64,000 nt of DNA. Origin: a bacterium. Lineage in GTDB: Bacteria; Patescibacteriota; CPR2; UBA1875; CAIMLA01. Below are positions 21,837-53,888 of this stretch, in pieces. Each line of letters begins with the position of its first letter. Within the stretch, counting starts at the first letter, position 1. The stretch covers positions 87,275 to 151,274 of the forward strand of contig JBAXUE010000003.1 in the NCBI GenBank assembly GCA_037129835.1, written 5' to 3'. The notes beneath the pieces are model-generated. The model was not told the origin of the DNA. It did not search any database and worked only from the letters and a program-made list of their open reading frames with translations. The translations under genes and the position numbers were made by a program.

Positions 21837-23183
21837 ATGGATAATAATATATTTAAAGCCTATGATATTCGTGGCATTTATCCGACAGAAATAAACGCTG
21901 CAGATGTAAAAAATATAGCAATGGCCTATGCTGATTGGCTGAAACCTAGACGCATAGCACTTGGCCGGGATGTTCGCTTATCAGGAGAAGAACTCTGGAA
22001 GGCTGCTGCAGATGGGCTAATAGAGATGGGCGTAGAAGTGGTTGATATTGGCGTGATTTCTACAGATATGTTATATTTTGCTGTCGCAAACTACAACCTT
22101 GATGGCGGTATTACAATTTCGGCATCGCACAATGCTGGTAATTTTAATGGTATGAAGTTCGTCAAGGAGCGTTCAAGACCGATATCTATTGATACCGGTC
22201 TTGCCGAAATACGAGACAGGGCAATTTTTGGGAAATTTGAAGCCCATAAACAAACTGGTAAAATAGTAAAAAAAGATATTATAAACGATTATGTCGAAAA
22301 AATGACTTCCTTTGTTGATAGGTCCGAAATAAGATCCCTTAAAGTGGTGGTCAATCCGAATTTTGGCTCAGCGGGTGATGTAATCCAAAGGGTAGCAAAT
22401 TATTATGGTATAGAGCTTGTAAAAATTAATTTTGAGCCAAATGGAAACTTTCCTAAGGGTAAGCCCGACCCCACAAAAACAGAGAATAGAAGCGAAACGG
22501 CTGCGCTAGTTAAGTCTAGCGGAGTTGATTTTGGGGTTACATGGGATGCGGATGCAGATCGTTGTTTCTTTTTTGATGAAAAAGGTAATTTTATCCTGCC
22601 GTATTATGCTACGGGAAATTTCATTGACTATTTTCTCAGGGGTCAGCCGGGCCAAACGATTATTATCGATCCTAGGCTTCGTTGGCTTTCCGCATATTTA
22701 GTAGGGAAAAAACAAGGAAAACTTATAATAAATAAATCCGGACACTCATTCATAAAAGAACGGATGAGAAAAGAAAATGCAATATTCGGTGCTGAAGCTA
22801 GTGCTCATTATTATTTTAGAGATCTTTGGTATACAGACAACGGTATTTTACCATTTATTCTTATGCTTAAGACCGTTTCAAGCTCTGCCTTACCCCTCTC
22901 TGCAGTAATTAAAAAATACCAGCATAGCTATTTTGCGCTTGAAGAACAGAATTATATTGTGGATAGCGTTGAAGAAACAATAAAGAAAGTAAAACATGCA
23001 TTTCCAAGCGACAATACAGATGATATAGATGGTTATTCGGCAGAGTTTATAGATTGGAGAATGAATTTAAGAGGTTCTAATACGGAGCTGCTAATACGGC
23101 TTAATATTGAAGCCACAAATAAAGAAATTGCTTTTAATCGGCTTAAGATATTAGAGGAGGTTATAGGTGGGGAAAAAGCTTAA
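21837..23183 (+). CDS. phosphoglucomutase/phosphomannomutase (alpha-D-phosphohexomutase)
   Basis: FKAYDIRG, the active-site Ser loop SASHNAGNFNGMK and the metal-binding DGDADR motif. Confidence 0.85.
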   Translation: MDNNIFKAYDIRGIYPTEINAADVKNIAMAYADWLKPRRIALGRDVRLSGEELWKAAADGLIEMGVEVVDIGVISTDMLYFAVANYNLDGGITISASHNAGNFNGMKFVKERSRPISIDTGLAEIRDRAIFGKFEAHKQTGKIVKKDIINDYVEKMTSFVDRSEIRSLKVVVNPNFGSAGDVIQRVANYYGIELVKINFEPNGNFPKGKPDPTKTENRSETAALVKSSGVDFGVTWDADADRCFFFDEKGNFILPYYATGNFIDYFLRGQPGQTIIIDPRLRWLSAYLVGKKQGKLIINKSGHSFIKERMRKENAIFGAEASAHYYFRDLWYTDNGILPFILMLKTVSSSALPLSAVIKKYQHSYFALEEQNYIVDSVEETIKKVKHAFPSDNTDDIDGYSAEFIDWRMNLRGSNTELLIRLNIEATNKEIAFNRLKILEEVIGGEKA

Positions 23184-29526: not shown

Positions 29527-29652
29527 ATAAGTTTACAAAGCTAACATAAGGCGTATAATTATCAAGTTCCCATATTTGTGGGTCATCCTAGTGGATACTA
29601 GGATAAGGATGTCTGTCTCTGCATCAACTCAGGGACAAAGGAGGTGTGCCGG

Positions 29653-29955
29653 ATGGCCGCTAGCATAGAGATCGTTGATGGGCCAAGTAAGTATGGACTC
29701 ATCGAAAGTCTTACGGAAGGCGACAGCAGAAGTAGACACGAGGTCTACTTCAAGATTCTCGCCAAGGTACATGATGAGATCGTCGAAGACACTATCAGTG
29801 GCTGGGTTAACACACTCGGTCGTGAGGATGGTTCTTCATTCCTCTGGAACGTAAATCTCTACCTGCGAGAAGCGCCTGGGTTTATTGCAAAGCATGGAGG
29901 TTGTATTAAGTTCCAATACGATGCACGTAAGCGCAAAGGAATGGTACAACTCTAA
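29653..29955 (+). CDS. hypothetical protein in a higher-GC islet
   Basis: ATG at 29653 is 8 nt after an aaaggagg RBS. The ORF has ~47% GC against a ~38% background. Hairpins flank it upstream (29585-29608) and downstream (29979-30010). Confidence 0.45.
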   Translation: MAASIEIVDGPSKYGLIESLTEGDSRSRHEVYFKILAKVHDEIVEDTISGWVNTLGREDGSSFLWNVNLYLREAPGFIAKHGGCIKFQYDARKRKGMVQL

Positions 29956-29978
29956 GGCCGCGATCTGACCTGCCTCCG

Positions 29979-30010
29979 CCTTCTACCGCCTAATTCCAGG
30001 CGGTAGAAGG
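29979..30010 (+). terminator. terminator-like hairpin
   Basis: ccttctaccgcc-taattccag-gcggtagaagg is a 12-bp stem. Confidence 0.55.
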
Positions 30011-30076
30011 CATCTACATTGACTTTTCACGCGATATTTGATATAATTAATTTAATTTAAAAGCTCTCCAATAAAT

Positions 30077-30679
30077 ATGCAAGTGACGAAAAACCAAATT
30101 AACGATGCCAAAAGTCTAAACGAGTTAGAAAAACTTGTTGCTGTTTGTGAGCTATGTGAGTTATCAAAAACCAAAACAAACGATGTTTTTGGAGTTGGAA
30201 GGGATACAGCTGATATCTTATTTATTGGCGAAGCGCCTGGGAAAAGTGAGGATTTGCTGGGAGAACCTTTCGTAGGGGCTGCAGGTAAATTCTTAAATGA
30301 AATGCTTGAGAGTATTTGCCTCTCGAGAAAAGAAATATATATTGCAAACGTACTTAAACATCGTCCACCAAATAATAGGGACCCGCTACCCAAGGAAGCC
30401 GAGCTGTGCTGGCCCTTCTTGAGACGTCAAATAGAGCTTATTAACCCAAAGTTAATTATCTTTCTTGGGCGCCACTCGATGAATCGTTTTTTTCCAGAGT
30501 TTAAGATATCTGAAGTACATGGGAACGCATTTCGTAAAGAAATGTGGGGAAGAAATCAAGTCTTTTTGGCCTTATATCACCCTGCAGCAGCACTATATAA
30601 CGGTGGGATGCGCGATACCTTGAAAAATGATTTTTCAAAAATACCTAAAATAGTCGAAGGAATCGACGAAGAATATTAA
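30077..30679 (+). CDS. uracil-DNA glycosylase, family 4
   Basis: CELCELS...GEAPG..ED..G.PFVG.AG..L motif series typical of family-4 UDG. Confidence 0.85.
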
Positions 30680-30787: not shown

Positions 30788-32596
30788 ATGGAAAAAGTAC
30801 TCCGTAAACCCGAGAGAAAACCTCGGAAACAACCACAGAATCATCAGTCAAATCCGATGTTTCGAAAAAACAATATTAAAACAAATTCTGATGTAAACCA
30901 GAATGGCTCACAAACAAAAGATATGAAAAACGGTCTTCTCAAGATAACTCCACTCGGAGGTCTGGGTGAAGTAGGTAAAAACCTAACCGTTTATGAATAT
31001 GAAAATGATATCATCATTGTCGATATGGGATTCAAATTTCCTGACAATGAGATGTTGGGTATCGATTACATCATTCCGGACATTGCCTATCTTGAAGACA
31101 AGAAAGACAAAATACGAGGTATCGTAATTACTCATGGACACGAAGATCATATTGGCGCAATACCCTATATCTGGCCTAAGCTCGGGGTGCCAATCTACGG
31201 AACAAAGCTAACCATTGGAATGATTGAATCAAAGTTATCAGAATATAGCTTTGACTATTCATCGGCTCTTAAGGTTATAGATCCAGAAAAAGATATCCTA
31301 AAGCTTGGTGGTTTTGAAGTAGAAGCCTTTCGTGTTACACACTCAATACCTGATGCGGTTGGCTATTCGATTAAAACACCACTTGGAAGAGTGATATACA
31401 CCGGAGATTTTAAAATTGATCATTCACCGATGGACGGTCGAAAGATTGATTGGAATAAGCTTTCGCATTTTGCCCAAGAAGGGGTCTTATTGTTACTTTC
31501 TGATAGCACAAACGCAGAACAACCAGGATTCTCTATGAGTGAAAAATCGCTAGAACAGAGTTTTGAAGATCTTTTTGACAAAGCTACTGGTCGTATTATC
31601 GTCGCCTCATTTGCTTCTCAAATAAATAGAATTCAGATGATTATCGATTCGGCTCGTGACCACGGGCGCAAGCTTGCTTTTTCTGGTCGATCGCTTCTCA
31701 AAAACGTCGAAATAGCAGTTCGGCTTGGATATCTGAAGGTCCCCGCTGGTATGGTAGTAAGAATTCAGGAAATCGGTAAATTTCCCGATAATATGGTAAC
31801 TATCATGAGTACAGGTTCTCAGGGTGAAGCGATGTCTGCACTTGCACGTATGGCACGTGGTGAGCATAAAAACATCAAGATTAAAAAAGGTGATACTGTA
31901 ATCTTTTCTAGCTCCCCTATTCCTGGAAATGAAAATTCAGTTACGTCTGTAATGGATGATCTTTTCCGAGAAGGTGCGAATGTTGTTTTCGATGCAGAAA
32001 GAAGCCGTACACATGTTACTGGACATCCTTGTCGCGAAGAAATCAAAATGATGCTTGCATTTCTAATGCCAAAATATTTTTCACCTTGGCACGGAGAGCG
32101 GCATATGCTTGTTAGACATGCAGAAGTAGCTAAGGAAGTAGGCGTGCCAGAACAAAATATCTTTATTTTAGACAATGGTAACCAAATACTGATTGATGAA
32201 AACGGGGCTCGTATGGGCGAACAAAAAGTTCAGAACGGCATCGTTCTTATCGACGGACTTGGGATAGGTGATGTAGGAGAGATAGTTCTTCGTGAAAGAA
32301 AAGCCATGTCTACAGAAGGGATTTTTGTTGTTATCTGCACGCTTGATCGTAAGACGGGCAGAATAATGACTAGCCCAGACATCATTTCTAGAGGATTTAT
32401 CTATATGCGTGAAAATGAAAAATTAGTAAGTAGTGCCAGGACTGAGATTAAACGAATTGTCGAGTCTGTACCAAAAGAAGATAGTAGTCAAAATCACCAG
32501 GTTCTGAAGGTAAAACTTCGAGAATCAATTGGAGATTTACTATATAACGAAACACAGCGAAGGCCGCTGGTTCTACCAGTTGTAATAGACATTTAG
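30788..32596 (+). CDS. rnj: ribonuclease J (beta-CASP metallo-beta-lactamase) with a basic ~50-aa N-terminal extension
   Basis: LGGLGEVGKN, HGHEDHIG (HxHxDH), the beta-CASP motifs and a C-terminal domain. Confidence 0.9.
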   Translation: MEKVLRKPERKPRKQPQNHQSNPMFRKNNIKTNSDVNQNGSQTKDMKNGLLKITPLGGLGEVGKNLTVYEYENDIIIVDMGFKFPDNEMLGIDYIIPDIAYLEDKKDKIRGIVITHGHEDHIGAIPYIWPKLGVPIYGTKLTIGMIESKLSEYSFDYSSALKVIDPEKDILKLGGFEVEAFRVTHSIPDAVGYSIKTPLGRVIYTGDFKIDHSPMDGRKIDWNKLSHFAQEGVLLLLSDSTNAEQPGFSMSEKSLEQSFEDLFDKATGRIIVASFASQINRIQMIIDSARDHGRKLAFSGRSLLKNVEIAVRLGYLKVPAGMVVRIQEIGKFPDNMVTIMSTGSQGEAMSALARMARGEHKNIKIKKGDTVIFSSSPIPGNENSVTSVMDDLFREGANVVFDAERSRTHVTGHPCREEIKMMLAFLMPKYFSPWHGERHMLVRHAEVAKEVGVPEQNIFILDNGNQILIDENGARMGEQKVQNGIVLIDGLGIGDVGEIVLRERKAMSTEGIFVVICTLDRKTGRIMTSPDIISRGFIYMRENEKLVSSARTEIKRIVESVPKEDSSQNHQVLKVKLRESIGDLLYNETQRRPLVLPVVIDI

Positions 32597-32601
32597 AGAA
32601 A

Positions 32602-32628
32602 AGAGCGGGAAACCGCTCTTTTTTTTAT
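32602..32628 (+). terminator. rho-independent terminator after rnj
   Basis: agagcggg-aaa-ccgctct followed by T9. Confidence 0.8.
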
Positions 32629-32999
32629 ATTCTTTTTTTGGTTCTGTCAGCAAAGAAAGAAAAATGTCTTATCGTTTTGTCATTCCAAACTAGATTTGGG
32701 ATCCATGTCTAAAATATTTTAATACTTTTGTCTATCGTCACAAAAGTATCCAAAAAGACTCTTTTTCTCGCGATCAGAAAGCAGATCCGCGGTCTCAAGT
32801 GCTTATGTTTAGGTATAATTAAATTATTTTTTAACGCTCCCACGAACTCGGGTATCGTGTGTCGCCCAAAATCGGCTATAATTTTGGCAGAACCTCGCTT
32901 GTGACAGCTAACTCTATTATTTGATAAGGGAATATTGAAATTTAAATATATTTTATATCTTATTGTCAGAAAGTCTGAACTTGTGAGATAATGACCCTG

Positions 33000-33470
33000 A
33001 CCGAACGGCCGTGAGACGACCTTGAGGAGGGGATTTCTACGACGCCTGGAAAAGGACGTTCTATGGGCCCAGGTGGAACCTGGGGCTGCTCCCGAAATTC
33101 GGGTGGACAAAGACGGGTGGACTGTCAAAGTCGCCGTCTGCCTCGGAGTAGTCTGGCTGGGTATAGTACCCACAAGCTTCAGGCTGGCACGTTGCCAACA
33201 GAAATCGTCAGGGAAAAGTACGATTTCTGAACCTGCTACCAAGAAAGAGGTGAATTGGGATGAAAGCCCAAACACACATAGGGCATCACTCCGATAAGCG
33301 AGGGCGAAAGCTCCTCTGACCTAGGAGGTGATAGGCTTCGGCCTATCTAGGCCTGCTAATAACAGGCTAGGAGACCTCGCTATGGCCTCTGATTCGGGCT
33401 AAACCCCGGCAAGTGAGTTACGGCTCAAACCCCCCGTCTGTTCCAGATATTTTGGGACACGGGGGGTTTC
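33000..33470. ncRNA. candidate structured non-coding RNA; ~470-nt GC-rich island of unknown identity and strand
   Basis: ~55% GC over 470 nt in a ~38% GC genome, between two + strand genes. Many stem-loops, e.g. a perfect 10-bp stem cagaaatcgt/acgatttctg at 33199-33229, and a terminal C7/G6 hairpin at 33429-33468. Only low-complexity ORFs overlap it. Partial resemblances to RNase P P4 (gaugaaagccc...auagggca) and to a tmRNA post-tag region (gcuaauaa + hairpin) are not convincing. Confidence 0.4.
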
Positions 33471-33496
33471 CAGTATATAGATGATATAATATACAA

Positions 33497-34024
33497 ATGA
33501 TAAAAAAATCTAGTGAATTGATAGGTAAGCCAGTAATACTACAGCGTGAAAAAGCTGTAGTAGGCCTTGTTAAGTCATTTGTAATAGACCCAGAAACGGG
33601 TGAATTGGTAGGCTTACTAGTGTTAGAGGGTTTTGGTAGCAGAAATCTCAAAAGTTTAGCTATTAAAGATGTCACCACAATAACAAAAGAATATTTTCTG
33701 ATAGGTAGCTATGAAAATCTGGGAGAGCTTGACGAAATTGTAAGAATAAAAAAAGTTTTGGATAAAAAAATAGGAATAAATAAATGTAATGTATATACAG
33801 TTAGCGGCAAGTTCCTCGGCCGCGTTAAAGACTTTAGTATTAATCTCACTTTTATGCGATTAGAAAAAATTTTTGTAGATTCTCTTTGGATAATAAGCAC
33901 AGCGAGGCACTATATAATATCTTTTAATCAAATAATAAGTATTGAACCTGGAAAAATAATTGTTGAAGATGCTACAGTGAGCAAAAAGAAAAGTGTTTTA
34001 GAAGAAGTCGCAGAAGCTTCATAA
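33497..34024 (+). CDS. PRC-barrel domain protein (two PRC-like repeats)
   Basis: Two repeats of the LIGKPV...G..LG.V.D..ID pattern seen in PRC-barrel proteins. Confidence 0.5.
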   Translation: MIKKSSELIGKPVILQREKAVVGLVKSFVIDPETGELVGLLVLEGFGSRNLKSLAIKDVTTITKEYFLIGSYENLGELDEIVRIKKVLDKKIGINKCNVYTVSGKFLGRVKDFSINLTFMRLEKIFVDSLWIISTARHYIISFNQIISIEPGKIIVEDATVSKKKSVLEEVAEAS

Positions 34025-42917: not shown

Positions 42918-45900
42918 ATGAAACCTAAAAAGGCTTATTTCAAGTTTCAGAAGAAAGAAGCTATTATTAGACCGTCAAAAATCGGTTCTTTTAGTGTTCA
43001 TGATTACTTTATAAAAACACAACTATTTATTTTAGAAATATTTTCTAAGCTTCATCTGGTTTTGCGCAAGCCGCACGATCAGGCTTATAAAAATATTAAA
43101 ATTTATAAAAATTATAGTGACCACCCCGCTTCTGGACCGATAAATCGCTCGGTAGCAGCCGGTTTCGTAGCTTCATTGGCGATTTTCCTAACTTTGCAAT
43201 ATGTTGTTCCAAATCTCTTTGACACCTTTAAGCCAAATAAGGCAGAAGCTTCATCAACTTCAAAACAATGGACATTAGATACAGATTTTAACAATAACAC
43301 CCCCACAACTGGTGTCGCTACCAACAGAGTTCTTGCCGTTTTGCCGGGTACTTCTTCCGTAACACTCGGTTCAAAAACAGTTACAGGTACAGGTACTGAT
43401 TTTACCACTTCGGTTAATACATATTCACCGAAAGAGGTGGCGATAAATGGTATAAGCTACGCAGTTGCGTCTGTAGAAAGCAATACTTCTCTTACATTAC
43501 GGGATAACTATCCTACAGCCACTGCTTCTGGATTAGCCTTGAGCCACAAAAGTGATACTGCGCTTCTAGGTACAGCCACATTAGTATCTGGCTCAGCTGC
43601 AGTGGTTGGTGTTGGTACAAATTTTAACACCAGTGTCAAAAAATTTGCTTCACCAATATTGATTAGAATATCGGGTACGGCCTATACGGTTTCTACGGTA
43701 ACCGACGACACACATCTTACACTCAGTGCCAATTCTGCAGTTTCTGGAGCTGGGCTACCGATTAGTTACGATAATGCTGTTGTAGGTAACAACGCAGTAT
43801 CACTGCACTCAGGTCCCGTAGCAACGACCTTGACATACGGTCTTGGTGGAAATGTGGGCAAAACAACTGCCGGTACATATTCTCTAGCGGTACCAGCGGG
43901 CATCACTGGTTTTACTGTAGATATCAAGGGCGCTGGCGGCGGCGGTGATACCGGTGGAGGGGCGGCTGGTACTGCTGGCGGGGTGACAAAGCTGTCTTAT
44001 AGTACTTACGATGCGACTGCGAACAGCGGTAGCGGTACCGGAGTGGTTGGCACGGCAAGTATCAGCGGATTTACCGGTCTGACGGCTGTAAGCGGTCAAG
44101 GTAACGCAGGAGGAGCTGGCGGTTATGGCACACCTGTTTACTATGACGGCGGTTGTCAATATGATTCCTGCGATCAACCATATGGCTGCTGGGCTCCTTA
44201 TTGGGACTACGGACCACTAGGTGCTAGCGGTGGCGCTGGTGGTAGGATTACTGGCTCTATTACTACGGCGCAAGTCGCAGGGCAGACACTATCTGTCGTT
44301 GTTGGTGCGGGCGGTGGTGGATATACAGCTGGTTCGATCGGTACAATCGTCGTAACCTATTTCACCACTGGTTATAACAGTACTGGCACGCTTTCAGGCT
44401 TAAAGATTGACTCTGGATCTAATGTAAAATCCAAGTGGAACACAGTATCTTGGGTGGGGACAACTACTGGAGCAGGGACTAATCCTATAAAGTTTCGGAC
44501 CCGGGGCTCGAATATGGCAAGCCCAACCACAGTTACTGGAAGCGCTGATACTGGATGGACGTATTGGAATAATGATGCAACTAACGTAGCTTATTACACA
44601 AGTACGGGAGCAACACTAGTAACCATCCCAACTAGATGGCTAGAAATAGAAGCTACCTTGACCACATCGGATATTACTGTTACTCCATCTTTGACTGATT
44701 TTACGATAAATTATGATACCTTAGATGCTCCTACAAACCTTGCTCAATACAAGGCAGATACTACGACGGCTATCAGTGCTAACTATACTAACGAAACTAG
44801 CTTTGTCGCCAAGGCGAATCTGGGCGTGCCACTCAAAAATTCTACACCTATCACGCCTCAGTTTGAAATCCGAACCACCGATACTGGCTGGACTGGGGCA
44901 GTAGCAGTACCGGCTGGCGTTACAGCCACTCCTACTAGCATAGTCTACACATGTACTGTTGATCCTTGTGCTGCTCTGGGAGTCCAAACGGTTGGAACCA
45001 TCACTGGTCTAACAGCTGGGACTAGCTATTATTACCGAGTTCGCACTACAGATGCCACAGGTCGGGTGTCTGGTTGGAGTGCCAGCTCTTCTTTTGTAAA
45101 TCCAGATCAGGCAGCACCTACTATTATTGCCTTCGTCAATGATGGGACAAGTGCGGACATTATATATTCATCTTCTTTGTCTCAGCTTTCTGCGAACTGG
45201 GGTGCTTCCACAGATGCAATTTCTGGTTTACAAAAATATCAATATGCCATCGGCACTACATCTGGGGGCACGAATACATTGACATGGACGGACAATGGTA
45301 CGGCTACTGCAGTGACAAAAACTGGACTATCACTTGTAGAAGGAACTACATATTATTTCACTGTTAGGGCTGTCGACAATGTTGGTAACACAAGCTTAGT
45401 TACAACTTCAAATGGTCAGCTTGTGGATGTATCGTCTCCAACGGGAACAATATCTATTAAAGATACAGAGAGTCCTTATAGTGATAATTATTCCAATGCG
45501 AAGCTCGTTAAACTTATTTTGACACCAGTAGAAACAGGCTCGGGTATGAAAGATTTCCAACTGTCTAATGACGGTGTTACATGGGGAACGGCAACAAGTA
45601 CTTTGGGAGTAGTGACAAACTCAGGAACTTGGGGGACATGGAGTGATGCCTATAATTCGACCGGATTTAGCGGTTGGTATCTAAGCGGGGCAGACGGGTC
45701 GAAGTCGGTTTATGTAAAGTATCGAGATGTAGCTTTGAATGTTTCTGGAACTCAGGGATCATATTCCCCGACAGCTTCTACGTCATGGACCATTCCTAAT
45801 GGTATTGCATCAATCAATTTTACTTTCGTTGGGGCTGGTGGTGGGGGTTGTTATGGCCCTAGATATAAACATACTGGTACTAGTGGCGGCAATGGTGGAG

Positions 45901-48900
45901 ACTCAGGAATCACAATCGGCGCCAACATCTATAAGGCGCTAGGCGGCACGGGAGCGACAGGAGAATATGATAGTGATTGTGGTATAGGCACTGATGGTGG
46001 GACTTCTTTCCCGGCCGGTTTTGTTCCGACACAAAATGTTACAGGAGGCGCAGGCAACGGTGGTCCAAATCCGGGCGATGATTATTACGCAGGTGGCCCT
46101 GGTGGCGCCGGAGGTTTATTGGCGGGTACAATTGGTGTAAGTGGCGGCAGTGCTACTATTTCTGTTGGAGCCATGGGTTCTCCAAATGGTGGCGCTGGAT
46201 CGGTTTTGATAACTTATTCTCAAAATATATCAGCCACTACCACGCTTGATACTACGGCTCCAACGGCCGCTATCACTTATTCATTATCACGTAACGTGAA
46301 GACCGGTGATGTACAGCGCATTACTGCTACATTTAATGAAGATATACTAGCAGGTACTTTACCAAAAGTGGCTATATCTGGCTCAAATACACTTGCCGCT
46401 ACAGATATGGTTAGGACAGATGCCACTCACTATTATTATGACTACACCGTAGGAGCTGGCAATGGAGCGTCAACGATCGCTTTGAGCGTGGGAACTGATC
46501 TTGCCGGTAATGTGGTAACGTCAGCCCCAACATCTGGTGCAACCTTTACCGTTGACAATGTCCTGCCAACAATTACATCAGCTACTTCAACGACCGCTAA
46601 TGGCTATTACAAGGCCGCAAATATAGTAAATGTTACAGTAAATTTCTCTGAAATCGTGTCTTCAATAGGTAGTGTTACTGTCAACTTAGATTCAGGTGGC
46701 GCTTGTAGTTTTATAATTACGAATTCTAACAGCGGTAGCTGTAATTATACAGTCGGAGCGAGCGATAATAGCTCTGACTTGAATACTAGTTCCATCTCCG
46801 GAAATATCAAAGATTTGGCTTTAAATACCTTAACCAACTTCGCTCCAGCTGCTTCTTTAGCTTCATCGAAAGCAATAGTTATCGATACCACAGCCCCAAC
46901 GGCTGCTATCACTTATTCATTATCACGTAATGTGAAGACTGGTGATGTACAGCGCATTACTGCTACATTCAATGAAGCTATGTTAGTAGGTACTTTGCCA
47001 AAAGTTGCTATATCCGGCTCAAATACACTTGCCGCTACAGATATGGTCAGGACAGATGCCACTCACTATTATTATGACTACACCGTAGGAGCTGGCAATG
47101 GAGCGTCAACGATCGCTTTGAGCGTGGGAACTGATCTTGCCGGTAATGTGGTAACATCAGCCCCAACATCTGGTGCAACCTTTACAATCGATAATATTGT
47201 ACCGACTCTCACAACGGTGACGATAGCTTCGAATAACACCATAAACCATGTGGCCAAGATGGGTAATCAAATCACACTTACAATAGTGGCTAGTGAAAGT
47301 GTTACTACACCTACTGTTATAATTGCGGGGAACTCGGCGACCGTAACGGGTACAGGAACTAACTATTCCGCAGTTTATACTATGGTAAGTGGAGATACAC
47401 AAGGGACGGTGCTATTCTCTATTTCAGCTTTTCAGGATTCAGCACTCAATACAGGATCGGTTGTAAGCACGAATACAGGTGGTAACAACATCACTTACGA
47501 TAGAACAAACCCTGATCAAATAACTATTACCAGTGTTAGTCCCGCTACAAACAATACCGGAGAGCAGACTGTCACTTGGGCAGATTATACAGATTCCGCT
47601 CCAACTTCTGGTTTTGGTAAATATGTATTACAAAGAAAGAAATCAACAGATGTGGACTTCTCAGATATAAGTCCAAGCGTAGAGATAACAAGTCAATCGA
47701 CTCATACATATTTGGACCATATAGCTCAGTCTAGTAATAGCTCTGGCACTTATTACTATCGCGTTATCGCCTATGATAGAGCTGGTAATAGTAGTAATGG
47801 GGCTGCATCTCAGGCGGTTGTTATAGATAATCAGGCACCAGCCGGTACTTTGCACATTCTTGACACAGTTAATGGGACAGATCCAAAGGCGACAAAGAAC
47901 AGCACTGTAAACCTTTCTTTCATTCTTACAGATGATTATTCCGGAGTTTCTAGCTACTCTATAGATAATGGTGATGGAAATTGGTCGGAGTCTACAGATA
48001 TCTCTAGCGATGGCCTTAGCCATAGCGGTACTTATACTGGATGGGCTCTCGTAAACCCTAGCACCGAAGGAACTAAGACGGTACGAATAAAACTTGCCGA
48101 TAAGGCTGGAAATGAAGTAACCAACATCTCTCATACTATTATCCTAGATACTACTTCACCGGACAGCATTAGCTCAGTTGTTGCTTATAGTGACGATACT
48201 CAGGAAACATCAATCTCTGAAACTGGCGATAGCCTAGGATGGTACCCTTATACTGGCCCGAATTTTAAATTTATATCTTCGGATCAAGTATCTGGAATAA
48301 AAGAATTTAAGTATTGTATCTATCGCCCGTCTTCCGAGAGCTGTGATTATACGGCCAATTCAGCGGTATCGGCTAGCCAAATAAACAATTCGAAAAGCTA
48401 TACTGGCAATGTTACATTAGAGCTTACAGACTTTGGTAATAATAATATGCAGGGGGAATTGCTCTTTAAGGTAATCGGCGTAGATTATGTTGGTAAGACT
48501 AGTGCGCCGTCGACATATACTTACAAGTTTGATAATACAGTGCCAACTTATGTTAATAATTTTTCCGCTACCCAGGGCACCTATACTGACAAGATAGTCC
48601 TTACTTGGGACAAATCTTCAAATATTACCCCAGTCGCACCGATTGAAAAATATAAAATAGAGCGGGTTCAGTCGAGCTATTACAATGGAATCAACGACAG
48701 CGATTGGACTCAGTTTATAAATTATCAGAATATCACTTGTCAGACAGCTACACCTTATGTTTGTTTAGATAAAGATGGAGTCCAGGTCGGTAATATTAGT
48801 TTAGACGGGAGTAGTTATAAATTTGAGAATAAACCTGAGGTCGATGGTATATCGTCTACCTCTACCGATGCTTCTCTCTTGTCTTCAACTAAATATATTT

Positions 48901-51900
48901 ATCGTATCAGTGCAAAAGACTATTCAAATGAAGAGTATGGACCGGTGCCCGCGAATGGTAATCAAAATCAGTTCGAGGTTTATGGCTACACCAAAGATAC
49001 CGAGAGTCCAGGGGTTTTGCCAACAGATGTGACTGCAGTAACCTGTGACGGTGCAAGTGTTCTAGCTTGTAATGATGACCTGGCCATGAGGGGCAGAAGA
49101 GTTTATGTTAGCTGGGCACCAGCAGAAGATAATATCTCAGCAATAGATTATTACGATATTTATAGAAGAGAAGGTGGCCCTAATGATCTAAACGGCTGGG
49201 ATAAAGTCGGTACGCTACCAGAAACTACGGATAACGAATTTACAAAGAGGGTATTTTACGACGACACCGTCGTAGATGCGAAATCATATTCTTACCGTAT
49301 TGTTGCGGTTGATAAGGCTAGACCATTGCCAGCGAATGCGACTGAGATAGTCCCAGGCGGTATGATTGATAATATTGAAAACGCTACCCAATCGGCAGTA
49401 TATGTTTATGATATTACACCGCCAGTAGTGCCCACTTCGTTTACTGTTCAACCCAAAGGCATTGATTGCTTTGATGTCGAGTGTACTCCGAAACAGATGG
49501 TCGGTATTAGTTGGCAAGAAACGACGGATAATACTCCAAGCAATAATATTTCGTATGAGCTGTATCGATCATTGTCAGCGACCTCGGGCTTCGGAGAAGT
49601 GGCGGCGGCGGCAACCATCTCGCCAGACAATACAGGCAAGTATTTCTATGAAGACAAGGCCTTGGATGATAGGACTACATATTATTACTACCTCAGGGTT
49701 ATTGACGGTCATGAAAATAGCGCAAATACTACGGTTATGGTAGTTACCACTGGTAATAGTTCAGCACCAACACCACCAAAAGATGTTTTAGTTTCTAATA
49801 GTGATAGTTCACTTACAGATCAAGCACATCAGCTTAGGGTCAGCTTTGTCGGTAGTTATGCAAGAGGGTTTGATTCAGTCACTAAAGAAAACGGAATCGT
49901 AGGTTATGATTCGTACATCTCGCAAACAAATATTATACCTGATATGCTTCAAGACCCAACAGACGGTACTACGAATAACTGTATTGATAACGAAACCGCC
50001 GATGACTGTTGGATAAGAATAAATAATGCTACGGTTGCAAATACCCAGACCCTTACTACACCGATCGGAGACGATTCTCATATTGTTAGAGCGTTTACTG
50101 CCGCAAATCTTACAGAAACAACACAATATTATTTCCGCATTCGTGCAGTGGACAACGGAAAAAATATTGACGGTTCAGATGCACCTCTTAAGTCACTTTT
50201 TACAGCGGTAACGCCTCTAGTTAAAAAAAGTGGTGGCTGGGAGGTTACGCGCGATCTCACTGTACCGCCGCTTCCAACTGGAGGCCTAGAGGTGAAAGTT
50301 ACTAATACTCACCCAAATACCACAGTACTTCGCAACATCGTTACTTGGAAGATTCTTAGTGAAAAACCTTTAAGAAAGAAACTACCATTTGAAATAGCTT
50401 ATAACGCCACGACGAATCCAAAAGGTTGTAAAGCGGTAGCAGTAAACGGAGTAGACTACTGCAACGATTTTTATAGCTTTGAATTATATAGAGAGGTATT
50501 GGACGTAGATAATAATGTAATATACGAAAGTTCTACCCCGATAAAGACAGAAATTAATCCTGAGACAAACTTTTATATCGATGAGATAGGTAACACAGAT
50601 CTTATCGGTGGTACGGGTGATAGCTCATTCCTTATCGATGCCAAAATAAGATATTATGTTAAAGTCGTTGATAGTTCTATCTATAACTTCAACTACCCAG
50701 ATGGCACTAGTATCAATGCACTTCCAAACAAAACCGAGAGGCAAGATTCTGGATCCACTATTATTCCTGCCAAGTCGATACCAAGCATATTGGGTTTAGT
50801 CACGGTTTCTGACATTGGTGTTTCTTCGGCGACTGTTTCGTGGACGACCAATCAATCAACAGATGCCGTAGTTGAATTTCGGAAAAAGTATAAAAATGGT
50901 AACTCAGGGGAGTTAAATGACGGTACTTATCAGGTTATCGGAGAGAATAGTAACCCTGTTATACACGTAGAAACAGAAAATCATGCCGTACAAATGTTCG
51001 GCCTTCAAGCAGAGACTGAATATGATTATCGAGTTGTTTCAAAGAATTATTTGGCGAACACAGTTTATAGAAGTGGTAATGACGTGCCAACCTTAAAGAC
51101 TAAAGGATTCACCATCACCTATTTGCCGAATCGACTATCAACTACAACTGTATCTGCAGAACTACGTTGGTCTACCAATATGCCGTCAAATTCAAATATG
51201 GTTGAGTTTAGAGAAAGCAATGGGACACAAAACGGTGCAGTGGCTGAAACGCCACTAAAAACAGAGGAAGTTACTACTTGGGCAAAAAACTGTGAAGCGA
51301 ATCCAAACTCTCAGCTTTGCTCTCATTCGGTAATTATCTCTCCTTTAAAGAAAAGTACAGAGTATACAATAAATATAGTTTCTGTTTCTCTCGACAATTA
51401 TAATACAAGCTCTGGGCTTCAGAAATTTACGACTGCAAGCTCTGATTCTAAACAGTTTACGGTTAAGCCATCTGCTTCGAATGTCGCTGAAAGAAATATT
51501 ACTGCCACTTCGGCTCAAATAGTTTTCCAGACCGCAGAGAGCACAACTGCTACTCTTTACTATGATGTTGAGAGCGGTGCTCCAACCTATGAGCCAAAAG
51601 ATTATAAGCTTACTGCTACAGACGCATTGAATAGCACTACTCATCAGATCCTCGTCGATGGACTCGAGCCGGGCAAAAAATATTATTATATTGTAAAGGT
51701 TGATAATGGGCTTCTTTCCTACACTTCCCCAGAGTCTTCGTTTACTGCGGTTCTAAAACCAAAAATATCAAATCTTAAAGTAGCCGAAGTAAAGCCATAC
51801 TCATTCCAGGTTACCTGGGAAACAAATATTGATACTGAAACGCTCATCAATTTAGGTGCGGGCTCGGCAAACTATAGCGAGAAAAGAGGCAAGCCCGGAC

Positions 51901-52451
51901 TAGTTAAGAGTCACGACCTCATGGTTGATCAACTTACTGATAACACAGAGTATCATTATCAGATATTAGCCAAAGATGACACTGGCAATGAAGTTGCCTC
52001 TAGTGACTCTATTATAAGAACACCACTAGATACAGAGGGGCCAAAGATATCTGGCGTAAAAGTAGATATCTTACCAATGGGAGAAAATGATACCAAGTCT
52101 TCGGTAATCATTTCCTGGATAACTGACAAGCCAGCCACCACCTTGGTAGAGTATGACAAAGGTGTCATCGGCGGCGATTATGGCAACCGTTCTGTAGAAG
52201 ATACTTCTCTTAATAATTCACACACCGTTATCATTAAGGGTCTTGATCCCGCTGCTTCCTATCACTATCGTATTATTTCCAAGGATAAACGAAATAATAT
52301 TACTGAATCACAGGATTATACGTTTGTTACGCCTAGTAGAGAAAAATCTATCTTACAGCTTATACTTAAATCATTTGAAGAAACATTTGCTTGGACCCAG
52401 AGATTAAACGAGTTTTTTGGGAGTTTGGGCAAGAGATTTGCCGGAAAGTAA
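42918..52451 (+). CDS. giant cell-surface protein (3177 aa): N-terminal membrane anchor, Thr/Ser/Gly-rich Ig-like repeats, Gly-rich modules, C-terminal FN3-like repeats
   Basis: Uninterrupted 9.5-kb ORF. TM helix VAAGFVASLAIFLTL near the N-terminus, so the true start may be a non-ATG codon downstream of 42918. Repeated domain boundaries of the form (V/I)DxTAPT/VDNxxP. GGxGG-rich blocks at ~43.9-44.3 kb and ~45.8-46.2 kb. Tandem ~90-100-aa FN3-like units in the last ~2 kb (e.g. VSWTTNQSTDAVVEF...YDYRV). Confidence 0.85.
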   Translation: MKPKKAYFKFQKKEAIIRPSKIGSFSVHDYFIKTQLFILEIFSKLHLVLRKPHDQAYKNIKIYKNYSDHPASGPINRSVAAGFVASLAIFLTLQYVVPNLFDTFKPNKAEASSTSKQWTLDTDFNNNTPTTGVATNRVLAVLPGTSSVTLGSKTVTGTGTDFTTSVNTYSPKEVAINGISYAVASVESNTSLTLRDNYPTATASGLALSHKSDTALLGTATLVSGSAAVVGVGTNFNTSVKKFASPILIRISGTAYTVSTVTDDTHLTLSANSAVSGAGLPISYDNAVVGNNAVSLHSGPVATTLTYGLGGNVGKTTAGTYSLAVPAGITGFTVDIKGAGGGGDTGGGAAGTAGGVTKLSYSTYDATANSGSGTGVVGTASISGFTGLTAVSGQGNAGGAGGYGTPVYYDGGCQYDSCDQPYGCWAPYWDYGPLGASGGAGGRITGSITTAQVAGQTLSVVVGAGGGGYTAGSIGTIVVTYFTTGYNSTGTLSGLKIDSGSNVKSKWNTVSWVGTTTGAGTNPIKFRTRGSNMASPTTVTGSADTGWTYWNNDATNVAYYTSTGATLVTIPTRWLEIEATLTTSDITVTPSLTDFTINYDTLDAPTNLAQYKADTTTAISANYTNETSFVAKANLGVPLKNSTPITPQFEIRTTDTGWTGAVAVPAGVTATPTSIVYTCTVDPCAALGVQTVGTITGLTAGTSYYYRVRTTDATGRVSGWSASSSFVNPDQAAPTIIAFVNDGTSADIIYSSSLSQLSANWGASTDAISGLQKYQYAIGTTSGGTNTLTWTDNGTATAVTKTGLSLVEGTTYYFTVRAVDNVGNTSLVTTSNGQLVDVSSPTGTISIKDTESPYSDNYSNAKLVKLILTPVETGSGMKDFQLSNDGVTWGTATSTLGVVTNSGTWGTWSDAYNSTGFSGWYLSGADGSKSVYVKYRDVALNVSGTQGSYSPTASTSWTIPNGIASINFTFVGAGGGGCYGPRYKHTGTSGGNGGDSGITIGANIYKALGGTGATGEYDSDCGIGTDGGTSFPAGFVPTQNVTGGAGNGGPNPGDDYYAGGPGGAGGLLAGTIGVSGGSATISVGAMGSPNGGAGSVLITYSQNISATTTLDTTAPTAAITYSLSRNVKTGDVQRITATFNEDILAGTLPKVAISGSNTLAATDMVRTDATHYYYDYTVGAGNGASTIALSVGTDLAGNVVTSAPTSGATFTVDNVLPTITSATSTTANGYYKAANIVNVTVNFSEIVSSIGSVTVNLDSGGACSFIITNSNSGSCNYTVGASDNSSDLNTSSISGNIKDLALNTLTNFAPAASLASSKAIVIDTTAPTAAITYSLSRNVKTGDVQRITATFNEAMLVGTLPKVAISGSNTLAATDMVRTDATHYYYDYTVGAGNGASTIALSVGTDLAGNVVTSAPTSGATFTIDNIVPTLTTVTIASNNTINHVAKMGNQITLTIVASESVTTPTVIIAGNSATVTGTGTNYSAVYTMVSGDTQGTVLFSISAFQDSALNTGSVVSTNTGGNNITYDRTNPDQITITSVSPATNNTGEQTVTWADYTDSAPTSGFGKYVLQRKKSTDVDFSDISPSVEITSQSTHTYLDHIAQSSNSSGTYYYRVIAYDRAGNSSNGAASQAVVIDNQAPAGTLHILDTVNGTDPKATKNSTVNLSFILTDDYSGVSSYSIDNGDGNWSESTDISSDGLSHSGTYTGWALVNPSTEGTKTVRIKLADKAGNEVTNISHTIILDTTSPDSISSVVAYSDDTQETSISETGDSLGWYPYTGPNFKFISSDQVSGIKEFKYCIYRPSSESCDYTANSAVSASQINNSKSYTGNVTLELTDFGNNNMQGELLFKVIGVDYVGKTSAPSTYTYKFDNTVPTYVNNFSATQGTYTDKIVLTWDKSSNITPVAPIEKYKIERVQSSYYNGINDSDWTQFINYQNITCQTATPYVCLDKDGVQVGNISLDGSSYKFENKPEVDGISSTSTDASLLSSTKYIYRISAKDYSNEEYGPVPANGNQNQFEVYGYTKDTESPGVLPTDVTAVTCDGASVLACNDDLAMRGRRVYVSWAPAEDNISAIDYYDIYRREGGPNDLNGWDKVGTLPETTDNEFTKRVFYDDTVVDAKSYSYRIVAVDKARPLPANATEIVPGGMIDNIENATQSAVYVYDITPPVVPTSFTVQPKGIDCFDVECTPKQMVGISWQETTDNTPSNNISYELYRSLSATSGFGEVAAAATISPDNTGKYFYEDKALDDRTTYYYYLRVIDGHENSANTTVMVVTTGNSSAPTPPKDVLVSNSDSSLTDQAHQLRVSFVGSYARGFDSVTKENGIVGYDSYISQTNIIPDMLQDPTDGTTNNCIDNETADDCWIRINNATVANTQTLTTPIGDDSHIVRAFTAANLTETTQYYFRIRAVDNGKNIDGSDAPLKSLFTAVTPLVKKSGGWEVTRDLTVPPLPTGGLEVKVTNTHPNTTVLRNIVTWKILSEKPLRKKLPFEIAYNATTNPKGCKAVAVNGVDYCNDFYSFELYREVLDVDNNVIYESSTPIKTEINPETNFYIDEIGNTDLIGGTGDSSFLIDAKIRYYVKVVDSSIYNFNYPDGTSINALPNKTERQDSGSTIIPAKSIPSILGLVTVSDIGVSSATVSWTTNQSTDAVVEFRKKYKNGNSGELNDGTYQVIGENSNPVIHVETENHAVQMFGLQAETEYDYRVVSKNYLANTVYRSGNDVPTLKTKGFTITYLPNRLSTTTVSAELRWSTNMPSNSNMVEFRESNGTQNGAVAETPLKTEEVTTWAKNCEANPNSQLCSHSVIISPLKKSTEYTINIVSVSLDNYNTSSGLQKFTTASSDSKQFTVKPSASNVAERNITATSAQIVFQTAESTTATLYYDVESGAPTYEPKDYKLTATDALNSTTHQILVDGLEPGKKYYYIVKVDNGLLSYTSPESSFTAVLKPKISNLKVAEVKPYSFQVTWETNIDTETLINLGAGSANYSEKRGKPGLVKSHDLMVDQLTDNTEYHYQILAKDDTGNEVASSDSIIRTPLDTEGPKISGVKVDILPMGENDTKSSVIISWITDKPATTLVEYDKGVIGGDYGNRSVEDTSLNNSHTVIIKGLDPAASYHYRIISKDKRNNITESQDYTFVTPSREKSILQLILKSFEETFAWTQRLNEFFGSLGKRFAGK
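46251..46550 (+). repeat. intragenic repeat copy 1 (~300 bp) inside the giant gene
   Basis: ~95% nucleotide identity to 46886-47186. It encodes TAPTAAITYSLSRNVKTGDVQRITATFNE...VTSAPTSGATFTVDN. Confidence 0.85.
46886..47186 (+). repeat. intragenic repeat copy 2 (~300 bp) inside the giant gene
   Basis: Near-identical to copy 1, with an in-frame 636-bp period. The intervening domain, and the domain following copy 2, are divergent. Confidence 0.85.
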
Positions 52452-53247: not shown

Positions 53248-53397
53248 TTTCAATTTTCTCTTGAAAGAAAAATGAGTTAACCTGCCTGCCGCAGGCGGGA
53301 TTCAAGAAAAATCCTTCTTCGCACCCTAGCTTCCGACGTCGCTAAAGCTATGCTGGACAAATCGGACGGACAGGTCGAACTATTTCTACTCCCCGTT

Positions 53398-53448
53398 GTC
53401 ATTCCGGACTTGATCCGGAATCTAGATTCCCGCTTTCGCGGGAATGAC
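53398..53448. repeat. canonical double palindromic hairpin element (intergenic copy)
   Basis: gtcattccgga-cttga-tccggaatctag + gattcccgc-tttc-gcgggaatgac. Antisense pseudo-ORFs read SFPRKRESRFRIKSGMT. This is the same hairpin family as the polA and truB inserts. Confidence 0.8.
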
Positions 53449-53589
53449 GGGAGTGGGGACGATTGTCGGGTGCGTGACACCAAAGCGATTTTTCATAGGA
53501 ATTAACACTCAAAGCCCAAACCCTTACATCATCCTGAGTCGAAACGAAGCTTGCCTGCGGTAAGCAGGGATCCATGTCCACTCTCCTTA

Positions 53590-53638
53590 TCGTTCGAATT
53601 CTAATGAGAACTATAGATACAAGTTATATGTTATTTTT
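53590..53638. repeat. 50-bp AT-rich direct repeat, copy 2
   Basis: tcgttcgaattctaatgagaactatagatacaagttatatgttattttt. Confidence 0.8.
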
Positions 53639-53888
53639 CATAGAACCTACGTAATCCAACCATCAGGTCGAAAAGAAAGAGAGTTAAGTAGCGAACATAT
53701 AATAAATAACTTCCGGTATCGGCTTGTTGTTATTTATTATATTAGAGTTACTGTAACGAAAGATGCTTTAAAGAATCTGCTTGCTCGTTCCGCCCGCCCG
53801 AACGACCTTCAGGTCGGGCAGGTAACCTTGGTGAAGGAGGGTTAGGTTGGGCTTTTTGCACCACTTTTATCAAAAAAGTGGTAGTAAA

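Follow-up and report, generated by a model that had tools for sequence, protein, structure and literature searches.

A GC-rich island between rnj and a PRC-barrel gene in a Patescibacteria genome: a candidate structured RNA with a conserved 3' module

We have analysed a GC-rich island that lies between two genes in a 64,000-nucleotide (nt) stretch of DNA from a bacterium of the Patescibacteriota (contig JBAXUE010000003.1 of GenBank assembly GCA_037129835.1, positions 87,275 to 151,274 of the forward strand). We refer to this whole stretch as the window, and coordinates are those of the window unless a comparison locus, designated by an L number, is named. The island (33000-33470) lies between two + strand genes: rnj, which encodes RNase J (30788-32596) and closes with a canonical terminator at 32594-32627, and the gene of a PRC-barrel protein (33497-34024). 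We give about an even chance to the reading that the island is a functional, independently transcribed structured RNA of ~470 nt, read from the + strand and derived from a messenger RNA (mRNA), possibly with micro-open reading frames (micro-ORFs) within it.

Topography of the island

A preliminary description of this DNA had drawn attention to the island as a hairpin-dense region of about 55% GC in a background of ~38%, situated between rnj and the PRC-barrel gene on the same strand, with a perfect 10-bp stem and a strong hairpin (33429-33468) at its 3' end. All of these features were found. The GC content of 33000-33470 is 55.0%, compared with 39.4% for the rest of the window, to which the earlier figure was close, and the 200-nt profile runs from 0.51 to 0.59. 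Only 0.28% of 471-nt segments are equally GC-rich, and all of the others lie inside an ORF of 3177 amino acids (aa), at ~43.6-44.0 kb. That ORF (42918-52451) contains repeated segments, and its Gly/Ala/Thr-rich N-terminal part (~43.6-44.4 kb) is the only part of the window outside the island that matches it in GC content.

The 10-bp stem is formed by 33199-33208 and 33220-33229, and the arms of the terminal hairpin by 33427-33437 and 33459-33469. When compared with dinucleotide shuffles, the minimum free energy (MFE) of the island is far lower than expected on the + strand (z -4.3) and also on the - strand (z -3.6), and the signal is stronger for 33233-33472, the 3' half (z -4.6), than for 32998-33232 (z -2.5). 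The full-length MFE fold also pairs the 5' leader with the 3' region (33007-33014:33418-33425), and hairpin loops in the island and in the corresponding units of relatives include UUCG, GAAA and GUAA. The features of the unit are as follows.

32963-32992, + strand: predicted sigma-70-type promoter with an extended -10 element; TTGTCA, 18-nt spacer, TGaGATAAT; 10/12 consensus matches, with TG before the -10
32998-33038, + strand: 5' leader, with a strong Shine-Dalgarno (SD)-like tract, GAGGAGGGG, at 33024-33032
33039-33230, + strand: middle region of lineage-specific hairpins, in the MFE fold at 33068-33084, 33091-33103, 33111-33139, 33158-33172, 33185-33197 and 33199-33229
33246-33319, + strand: second SD-like tract, AGAGGUG (33246-33252), and a candidate micro-ORF of 19 codons (33260-33319), MKAQTHIGHHSDKRGRKLL and stop
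33297-33410, + strand: structured 3' module, with an outer helix at 33297-33303/33375-33381
33313-33317/33324-33328, + strand: P1, CCUCU/GGAGG, in the predicted fold
33330-33336/33341-33347, + strand: HP1, with a UUCG loop, in the predicted fold
33350-33355/33363-33368, + strand: HP2, in the predicted fold
33395-33398/33405-33408, + strand: HP3, CGGG-CUAAAC-CCCG, in the predicted fold
33427-33469, + strand: long terminal hairpin, AAACCCCCCGU...ACGGGGGGUUU; arms 33427-33437/33459-33469, 100% complementary over 11 nt
33482-33499, + strand: the PRC-barrel gene's own promoter, TGaTATAAT, 6 nt, ATG; leaderless; marks the end of the unit

The corresponding unit in related genomes

The PRC-barrel protein has 10 homologue clusters among 5.8 billion proteins, and the contigs that carry a homologue come from a Patescibacteria group bacterium and from metagenome-assembled genomes of uncultured Candidatus Saccharibacteria. 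A scan of genome contigs with the PRC alignment gave three genomes; a pattern scan of metagenomes for more members of the family gave no further contig. Counting loci with a PRC protein of at least 50% identity on a contig that covers the upstream region, we recognize six lineages of the island: the window (with L001 and L002), L003-L006, L007/L008/L019, L018, L009-L011 and L017. The L020 and L022 sequences end before the island, and the L023 and L025 contigs end before the PRC gene.

A GC-rich island stands directly upstream of the PRC gene, which is followed by rpsF-ssb-rpsR-efp, in all six lineages. The neighbour on the 5' side varies, being rnj, a gene for a GT4 glycosyltransferase or a phosphoglucomutase gene in divergent orientation. 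Loci L003 and L004 have identical PRC proteins and the same island behind different upstream genes (GT4 glycosyltransferase and RNase J, respectively), so the 5' side of the island is a rearrangement breakpoint. The more distant PRC homologues (L012-L016) have no island at that position. In L012 (1530-1720), where the PRC gene comes after efp, a 506-nt gap upstream of rpsF starts with GAAGGGAGGUGG and a 24-codon CxxC ORF, and also has GAUAAGCGAG, which is shared with window 33293-33302; the element could be related to the island in reduced form, or the likeness could be due to chance. As judged from the sequences now available, the unit is a locus specific to a small clade of Saccharibacteria-like Patescibacteria, and very rare in current data.

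In the sister lineages the unit consists of three parts: an SD leader, an unstructured coding sequence (CDS) of 112-121 aa, which we call ORF1, and a structured 3' region. ORF1 has 112 codons and takes up the 5' two-thirds of the unit in L009, L017 and L023; its homologues have 120 aa in L018 and 116 aa in L025, which like L023 carries the ORF1 unit. Differences between the L009 and L017 copies fall at codon positions 1/2/3 in the numbers 23/12/57. The family (P0011-P0017) shares the motifs GGCCQxD, PxEV and WxVP and is represented by six clusters among 1.84 billion representative proteins in a full HMMER scan. Pfam gave no match for ORF1, for the L007 ORF or for the ORFs of the window island, and an AlphaFold model of ORF1 (predicted local distance difference test score, pLDDT, of 58) was too poor for a structure search. 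ORF1 coding sequences fold no better than shuffles (z -0.4 and -0.5), whereas the 3' regions of the units (150-310 nt) fold beyond them (z -5.9 for L009, -3.1 for L007 and -2.3 for L018).

ORF1 is not a constant part of the unit. L007 is without it and has ~470 nt of other GC-rich sequence instead; the 104-aa ORF of L007 has no homologue beyond itself. In the window ORF1 is likewise absent: between a retained leader and a retained 3' module lie ~250 nt of lineage-specific hairpins instead. When the whole window, L004 and L007 were translated in six frames and searched with an ORF1 profile, only noise resulted (E>3), and six-frame protein comparison among the islands revealed no similarity between the divergent ones. 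Because the sister-lineage unit is an mRNA of which only the 3' module is conserved, we conclude from these comparisons that the island is not one ancient 470-nt stable RNA. The suggestion in the preliminary description that it might be a divergent or novel RNA survives in part: a novel structured RNA is partly supported, and its conserved portion is the 3' module of a unit that encodes a protein elsewhere.

The conserved 3' module

The predicted fold of the module contains a 10-nt SD-like tract, AGGAGGUGAU (33323-33332), which is entirely base-paired, being locked by P1 and HP1. This tract is a perfect complement of the conserved 3' tail of 16S rRNA. We observed no conserved ORF after AGGAGGUGAU: the conserved bases downstream of it stand in different frames in L007 and L018. 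Across lineages the order of elements is P1, HP1, one or two further hairpins, HP3 with the form GGG-CUAAAC(A)-CCC, and the terminal hairpin. HP1 pairs GAU with AUC, and its loop is UUCG, GUAA or UUUUG, depending on the lineage.

The 3' core of the window island (33290-33425) gives local alignments with L007 and L018 at z ~5 (P<=0.001). The module can be recognized by a signature in two parts: YCUC-N4-9-GAGGUGAY, and after it GGGCUAAAC(A)CCC or, in the L009 group, GGAUAWCMCC. Every locus that covers the upstream region of this clade's PRC gene has this signature there, always on the + strand, and the remainder of the window and the more distant loci compared have none. The window has a single copy, its two parts lying at 33313-33332 and 33396-33407 and followed by the hairpin at 33427-33469, and the same order of signature and hairpin holds in L004, L007, L018, L009, L017 and L023 (the last with truncated sequence). 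The window thus carries the unit of this clade, on the + strand, upstream of a leaderless PRC gene, with the signature and the terminal hairpin.

Several hairpins show compensatory or wobble-preserving changes within pairs of lineages. Between the window and L004, a C-G pair of HP2 is replaced by U-A and the stem is extended; between L007 and L018, CGUGGG:CCCACG becomes CAUGGG:CCCAUG, a change of G-C to A-U in HP2; between L009 and L017, GUACUG:CAGUAC becomes GCGCUG:CAGUGC. A perfect hairpin of unrelated sequence occupies the position of the terminal hairpin in every relative that covers the site, and the terminal hairpins of L009 and L017 differ by five double-compensated pairs. From these sequence comparisons, the conserved RNA module is only the 3' ~110-180 nt of the unit.

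Constraint on the island

The island RNA of the window is 90.5% identical overall to that of L004. By segment, identity is highest in the leader (97.6%), followed by the SD2 region around the second SD-like tract (92.4%), the 3' core (92.1%) and the middle region (90.6%), and lowest in the terminal hairpin (80.0%). In rnj, rpsF, ssb, rpsR and efp, identity at third codon positions between the same two genomes is 81-86%. At the synonymous rate, by our own arithmetic, ~80 differences would be expected in the island, compared with the 45 observed (z ~-4).

These values bear on the view that the island is a non-functional remnant, that is, a decayed gene or foreign GC-rich DNA caught between rnj and the PRC gene. 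It would agree with such an origin that ORF1, present in sister lineages, is missing here, that the locus is a rearrangement hotspot, with different upstream genes even in L003 and L004, and that the adjacent PRC gene resembles a recombined allele. However, the island evolves about half as fast as flanking synonymous sites and maintains 55% GC in a 39% GC genome; promoter elements, SD tract and 3' module are kept, the RNA folds beyond shuffles, and compensatory changes are present. We regard a mere remnant as very improbable.

The PRC gene itself (33497-34024, compared with L004 4001-4528) is 76.5% identical at the nucleotide level and 51% identical at third codon positions, while its neighbours are 93-94% identical between the two genomes and the UDG gene (30077-30679) is 100% identical. 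In sequence, this pattern beside the island looks like mosaic recombination or allele replacement.

Comparison with known RNA families

The preliminary description had named the classical stable RNAs as candidates: RNase P RNA, transfer-messenger RNA (tmRNA), 6S RNA, signal recognition particle (SRP) RNA or an intron. We searched Rfam 15 with cmscan at gathering thresholds over the 64-kb window, and in a permissive mode (E<=10) over 32600-33600; five relatives were searched as well. At gathering thresholds no family was found anywhere in the window or in the five relatives, and ARAGORN reported no tRNA or tmRNA gene in the window. RNase P RNA (RNaseP_bact_a/b) gave no match at the gathering score in the window nor at E<=10 on 32600-33600. 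Likewise 6S, SRP, group I and II introns, OLE, GOLLD, ROOL, HEARO and raiA gave none under either search mode, in the window and five relatives. For tmRNA, both ARAGORN and Rfam were negative.

The two local resemblances that had been pointed out did not withstand inspection. The supposed RNase P P4 strands, GGGAUGAAAGCCC...AUAGGGCA, form a local hairpin (33266-33269/33281-33284), with no 3' P4 strand; in place of a long-range P4 (GAGGAAAGUCC with ACAGAA..GGCUUA strands) there is this hairpin and the AUG of the 19-codon ORF that follows an SD-like tract. The supposed tmRNA tag-end, GCUAAUAA, is the HP2 loop, which reads CAUAA in the closest relative, L004.

A highly divergent member of one of the classical families (RNase P, tmRNA, 6S, SRP, group I or II intron) would share with the island its size and its GC-rich character in an AT-rich genome, as RNase P RNA and tmRNA do, and the closing of the leader on the 3' region in the full-length fold (33007-33014:33418-33425) would be in keeping with it. 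Yet no covariance-model match to these families appears even at E<=10 in the window and relatives, ARAGORN is negative, most of the sequence is unconserved beyond the 90% identical relative, which is a misfit with a universal housekeeping RNA, and the unit of sister lineages has a protein-coding gene inside it. We consider this identity exceedingly improbable.

The sole sub-threshold Rfam match was to CssrA (RF02798), at 33288-33390, with 32 bits (E=2.4e-4; gathering score 93). It was not recovered in the 90% identical L004 nor in L007, L009, L017 or L018, and we take it to be a chance resemblance. Like the island, CssrA is a run of GC-rich hairpins beside ribosomal and translation genes, the Escherichia coli copy being located between rpsB and tsf; the match, though, is absent from the relatives, and its score is far under 93. 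As a side observation, CssrA ('Shigella sRNA A') maps to an unannotated rpsB-tsf gap (E. coli NZ_CP027548.1; L024 1501-1610) and is present in 5424/5426 complete E. coli genomes. A ribosomal-protein leader, such as that of rpsF (S6:S18), was also considered; the L20 and S15 leaders gave only 12-15 bits, which is noise level. A search of the literature on Saccharibacteria non-coding RNAs yielded nothing relevant.

Translation signals within the island

The leaders of the relatives have GACGAGUACC..GGGAGG at the same position as the SD-like tract of the window, and a real CDS starts 7-9 nt further on. Similarity of the window leader to those of the relatives is weak (P=0.044 for L007, and not significant for L009 and L018), and the middle region (33040-33295) has no similarity to the middle regions of L007, L018 or L009. 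This middle region overlaps an open frame of 63 codons (33039-33230), which opens with ACG, 8 nt after the SD core and at the position of the relatives' start codon. The preliminary description had seen no credible CDS in the island. That judgement stands insofar as no frame has an ORF conserved between the window island and its 89-90% identical relative, and it needs qualification insofar as two short frames keep coding hints.

These hints lead to the proposal that the transcript is primarily an mRNA for small proteins, in which the leader SD would serve the 63-codon frame from ACG, the second SD tract (SD2) would serve a 19-aa peptide, and the hairpins would be untranslated region (UTR) or stability elements. 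In its favour, no segment of the RNA is better conserved than the SD-bearing leader, which stands where relatives start a real CDS, and the 63-codon frame has the right spacing. It is open and has the same stop in L004, from which it differs by 9 synonymous and 9 non-synonymous changes (P=0.027 for the one frame), including eight consecutive third-position transitions between 33071 and 33155. On the other hand, the frame has no AUG, GUG or UUG start, and its sole AUG (33063) is AAG in L004. P rises to 0.088 when three frames are allowed for, a gene caller predicted no gene in 33039-33230, and the Gly/Arg/Ser-rich peptide TTPGKGRS...EKYDF (33039-33227), which was not searched against protein databases, has no match in Pfam. 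The 5' part of the window island, including the middle region, has a folding z of -2.5, intermediate and better than the relatives' real CDSs (-0.4 and -0.5), and the same third-position transitions also preserve G-U pairs in the hairpins.

For the second frame, the pattern of SD2 (GGAGGUG with AUG or GUG 5-7 nt on) recurs in five other lineages (L007, L009, L017, L023 and L025) and not in L018, and both differences between the window and L004 in the micro-ORF (33280 and 33307) are synonymous in its frame. The ORFs linked to SD2 vary in start (AUG or GUG) and in stop (UGA, UAA or UAG). Against a coding role, the counterparts in L009 and L023 have no third-position bias, and a conserved AAGUGCG stands in different frames in L009 and L017. 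In the window, the stop codon of the micro-ORF falls in the 5' strand of P1. Taken as an account of the whole unit, an mRNA for small proteins seems to us rather unlikely, while the sequences leave room for translation as a part of it: one or both of the frames 33039-33230 and 33260-33319 may still be translated.

Transcription signals and the downstream genes

The 5' end of the island RNA is predicted at ~32998-33000, from the promoter at 32963-32992, and its 3' end at the long hairpin. The L004 promoter keeps the -35 (TTGTAA) and TGaGATAAT elements; its spacer has diverged, and the block is 83.8% identical to that of the window. The terminal hairpin is probably the 3'-end or terminator stem, although it is poor in its U-tract (UUUCCAGU); a terminator scan, in which it has no U-run, did not call it.

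With such a hairpin, the island could instead be a cis-acting leader or attenuator of the PRC gene and rpsF-ssb-rpsR-efp, reached by read-through from the promoter ending at 32992, with the module sensing translational capacity or a ribosomal protein. Consistent with this are the poor U-tract, the ribosomal neighbourhood, the constant placement of the module within ~30 nt of the PRC promoter while everything upstream varies, and the abundance in the module of SD-like and anti-SD-like segments, for which alternative pairings are possible. However, the PRC gene is served by a leaderless promoter of its own (TATAAT with ATG 6-7 nt on), which is kept in the window, L007, L018, L009 and L017, and the gene offers a read-through mRNA no SD. 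Further downstream, as read in the sequence, rpsF has a separate promoter (TTGACC-N17-TATAAT) and its own 5' UTR, so that the PRC gene with its leaderless promoter, and then the rpsF promoter and 5' UTR, separate the island from rpsF. No consistent antiterminator pairing was found, and no ribosomal-protein leader family matched. In our judgement a leader of this kind is improbable.

The promoter of the PRC gene is not alone of its kind in the window: TATAAT stands 6-8 nt before ATG, with no SD, at the genes beginning at 4488, 33497 and 36937, and probably at 21837, an arrangement that points to leaderless mRNAs. Among the other long ORFs of the window, about 40% have a GGAG-type SD, and the genome therefore mixes both modes of initiation.

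Related sequences elsewhere in the window

The preliminary description had also reported a string common to the island and a second site. We found it at 53798-53813, with 0 matches in shuffled sequence, for a pattern that had been designed post hoc. The string is situated in a 62-nt insertion (~53771-53832) that is specific to the window genome and that resembles the island leader (CCGAACG..ACCUUSAGG...GGAGGG), with the leader-like string CCGAACGACCUUCAGG...GAAGGAGGG; after the insertion there is only a terminator, shared with the converging gene. The surrounding intergenic element (53380-53880; ~300-500 nt, with a copy at L004 3110-3440) has GC-rich palindromes such as GUCAUUCCGGACUUGAUCCGGAAU, and the window copy has two insertions, of ~145 nt and 62 nt. 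The element is 20 kb from the island in the window and directly upstream of the island in L004.

Another GC-rich island, of ~50% GC, is found at 29540-30020. It has a TATAAT promoter-like site, an SD, GGAGGUGUGCCGG, followed by AUG, a 100-aa orphan ORF (29653-29955) with no Pfam match, which is also a called gene in L004 (1-303), and a strong hairpin at ~29978-30011. A 12-mer of this island, GGAGGUGUGCCG, recurs without change in the second SD block of L009.

Discussion

The observations described above lead us to favour, at about even odds in our own estimation, a structured RNA with its own promoter, which would derive from an mRNA and its 3' UTR element and would have the 3' module as its conserved core. 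The module persists, together with its promoter and leader, in a genome without ORF1, so that its function cannot be limited to cis-regulation of ORF1. The tests for pairing between leader and 3' module and for antiterminator pairing were null, and separate promoters serve the PRC gene and rpsF; together these results favour a stand-alone structured RNA, possibly of dual function.

A number of our results weigh against this interpretation and should be considered with it. The window island is missed both by nhmmer, when the 3' regions of the relatives serve as profiles, and by z-scores of global alignments, and only the local alignment of the 3' core is significant. Covariation is thin, as the window's own type is represented by only two sequences; a comparison of the window with L004 gives 10 broken pairs where 14.2 +/- 2.4 were expected (P=0.07), and this test does not discriminate the strands. 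MAFFT and RNAalifold gave no single consensus fold for all lineages, the alignments being mis-registered. The conserved leader SD, the 63-codon frame at the right spacing and its 9:9 ratio hint at translation, the lack of a good U-tract at the terminal hairpin makes read-through into the PRC gene possible, and the pairing tests mentioned above were either not significant or inconsistent.

As to a mode of action, we tentatively propose regulation through pairing of the SD/anti-SD type, a proposal that we regard as possible and less than probable. P1 and HP1 would hold AGGAGGUGAU against the anti-SD-like CCUCU, and the C-rich loop of HP3 (CUAAACCCC) would be open to G-rich ribosome-binding sites, including that of the RNA's own leader. 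An alternative to such action in trans would be an effect on the adjacent PRC and ribosomal-protein genes. More speculative still, and in our view doubtful, is the idea that we are observing a transition from mRNA to RNA in progress, in which a 3' UTR module outlived its gene and became the core of a larger RNA; that RNA might act on the anti-SD tail of the ribosome or on ribosome-binding sites, possibly together with the PRC-barrel protein.

Three known systems bear comparison with the structured RNA proposed here. RNAIII of Staphylococcus aureus is also ~0.5 kb in length, with its own promoter, a chain of hairpins ending in a terminal hairpin, embedded short ORF(s), and C-rich loops able to pair with G-rich ribosome-binding sites; it has no sequence or Rfam similarity to the island, it belongs to another phylum and genomic context, and the ORFs of the island are only candidates. 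Small RNAs embedded in or derived from 3' UTRs are a second likeness, as the module of the sister lineages is the 3' UTR of a small-protein mRNA and ends in a terminal hairpin; its persistence here without a CDS would fit independent action, but in the window it is part of a larger, apparently non-coding RNA. Finally, RNA thermometers and translational riboswitches (ROSE, fourU) resemble the module in that an SD-like tract is locked in stems, here in all lineages. Unlike theirs, the SD of the island is an orphan with no conserved start or ORF, and no thermometer or riboswitch of Rfam matched.

For the annotation of AT-rich genomes, the lesson is not to equate every GC-rich island with a classical stable RNA. 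To our knowledge, the non-coding RNAs of Patescibacteria (the candidate phyla radiation, CPR) are almost unexplored, and the island would represent a new family of structured RNA, restricted to one clade. The pattern is an unusual one, in that a single transcription unit would be protein-coding in some lineages and a folded RNA only in others, with its tail kept in both. If the orphan SD tract does meet ribosomes or ribosome-binding sites, the unit would be relevant to the fine control of translation initiation in tiny genomes whose mRNAs are partly leaderless and partly SD-led.

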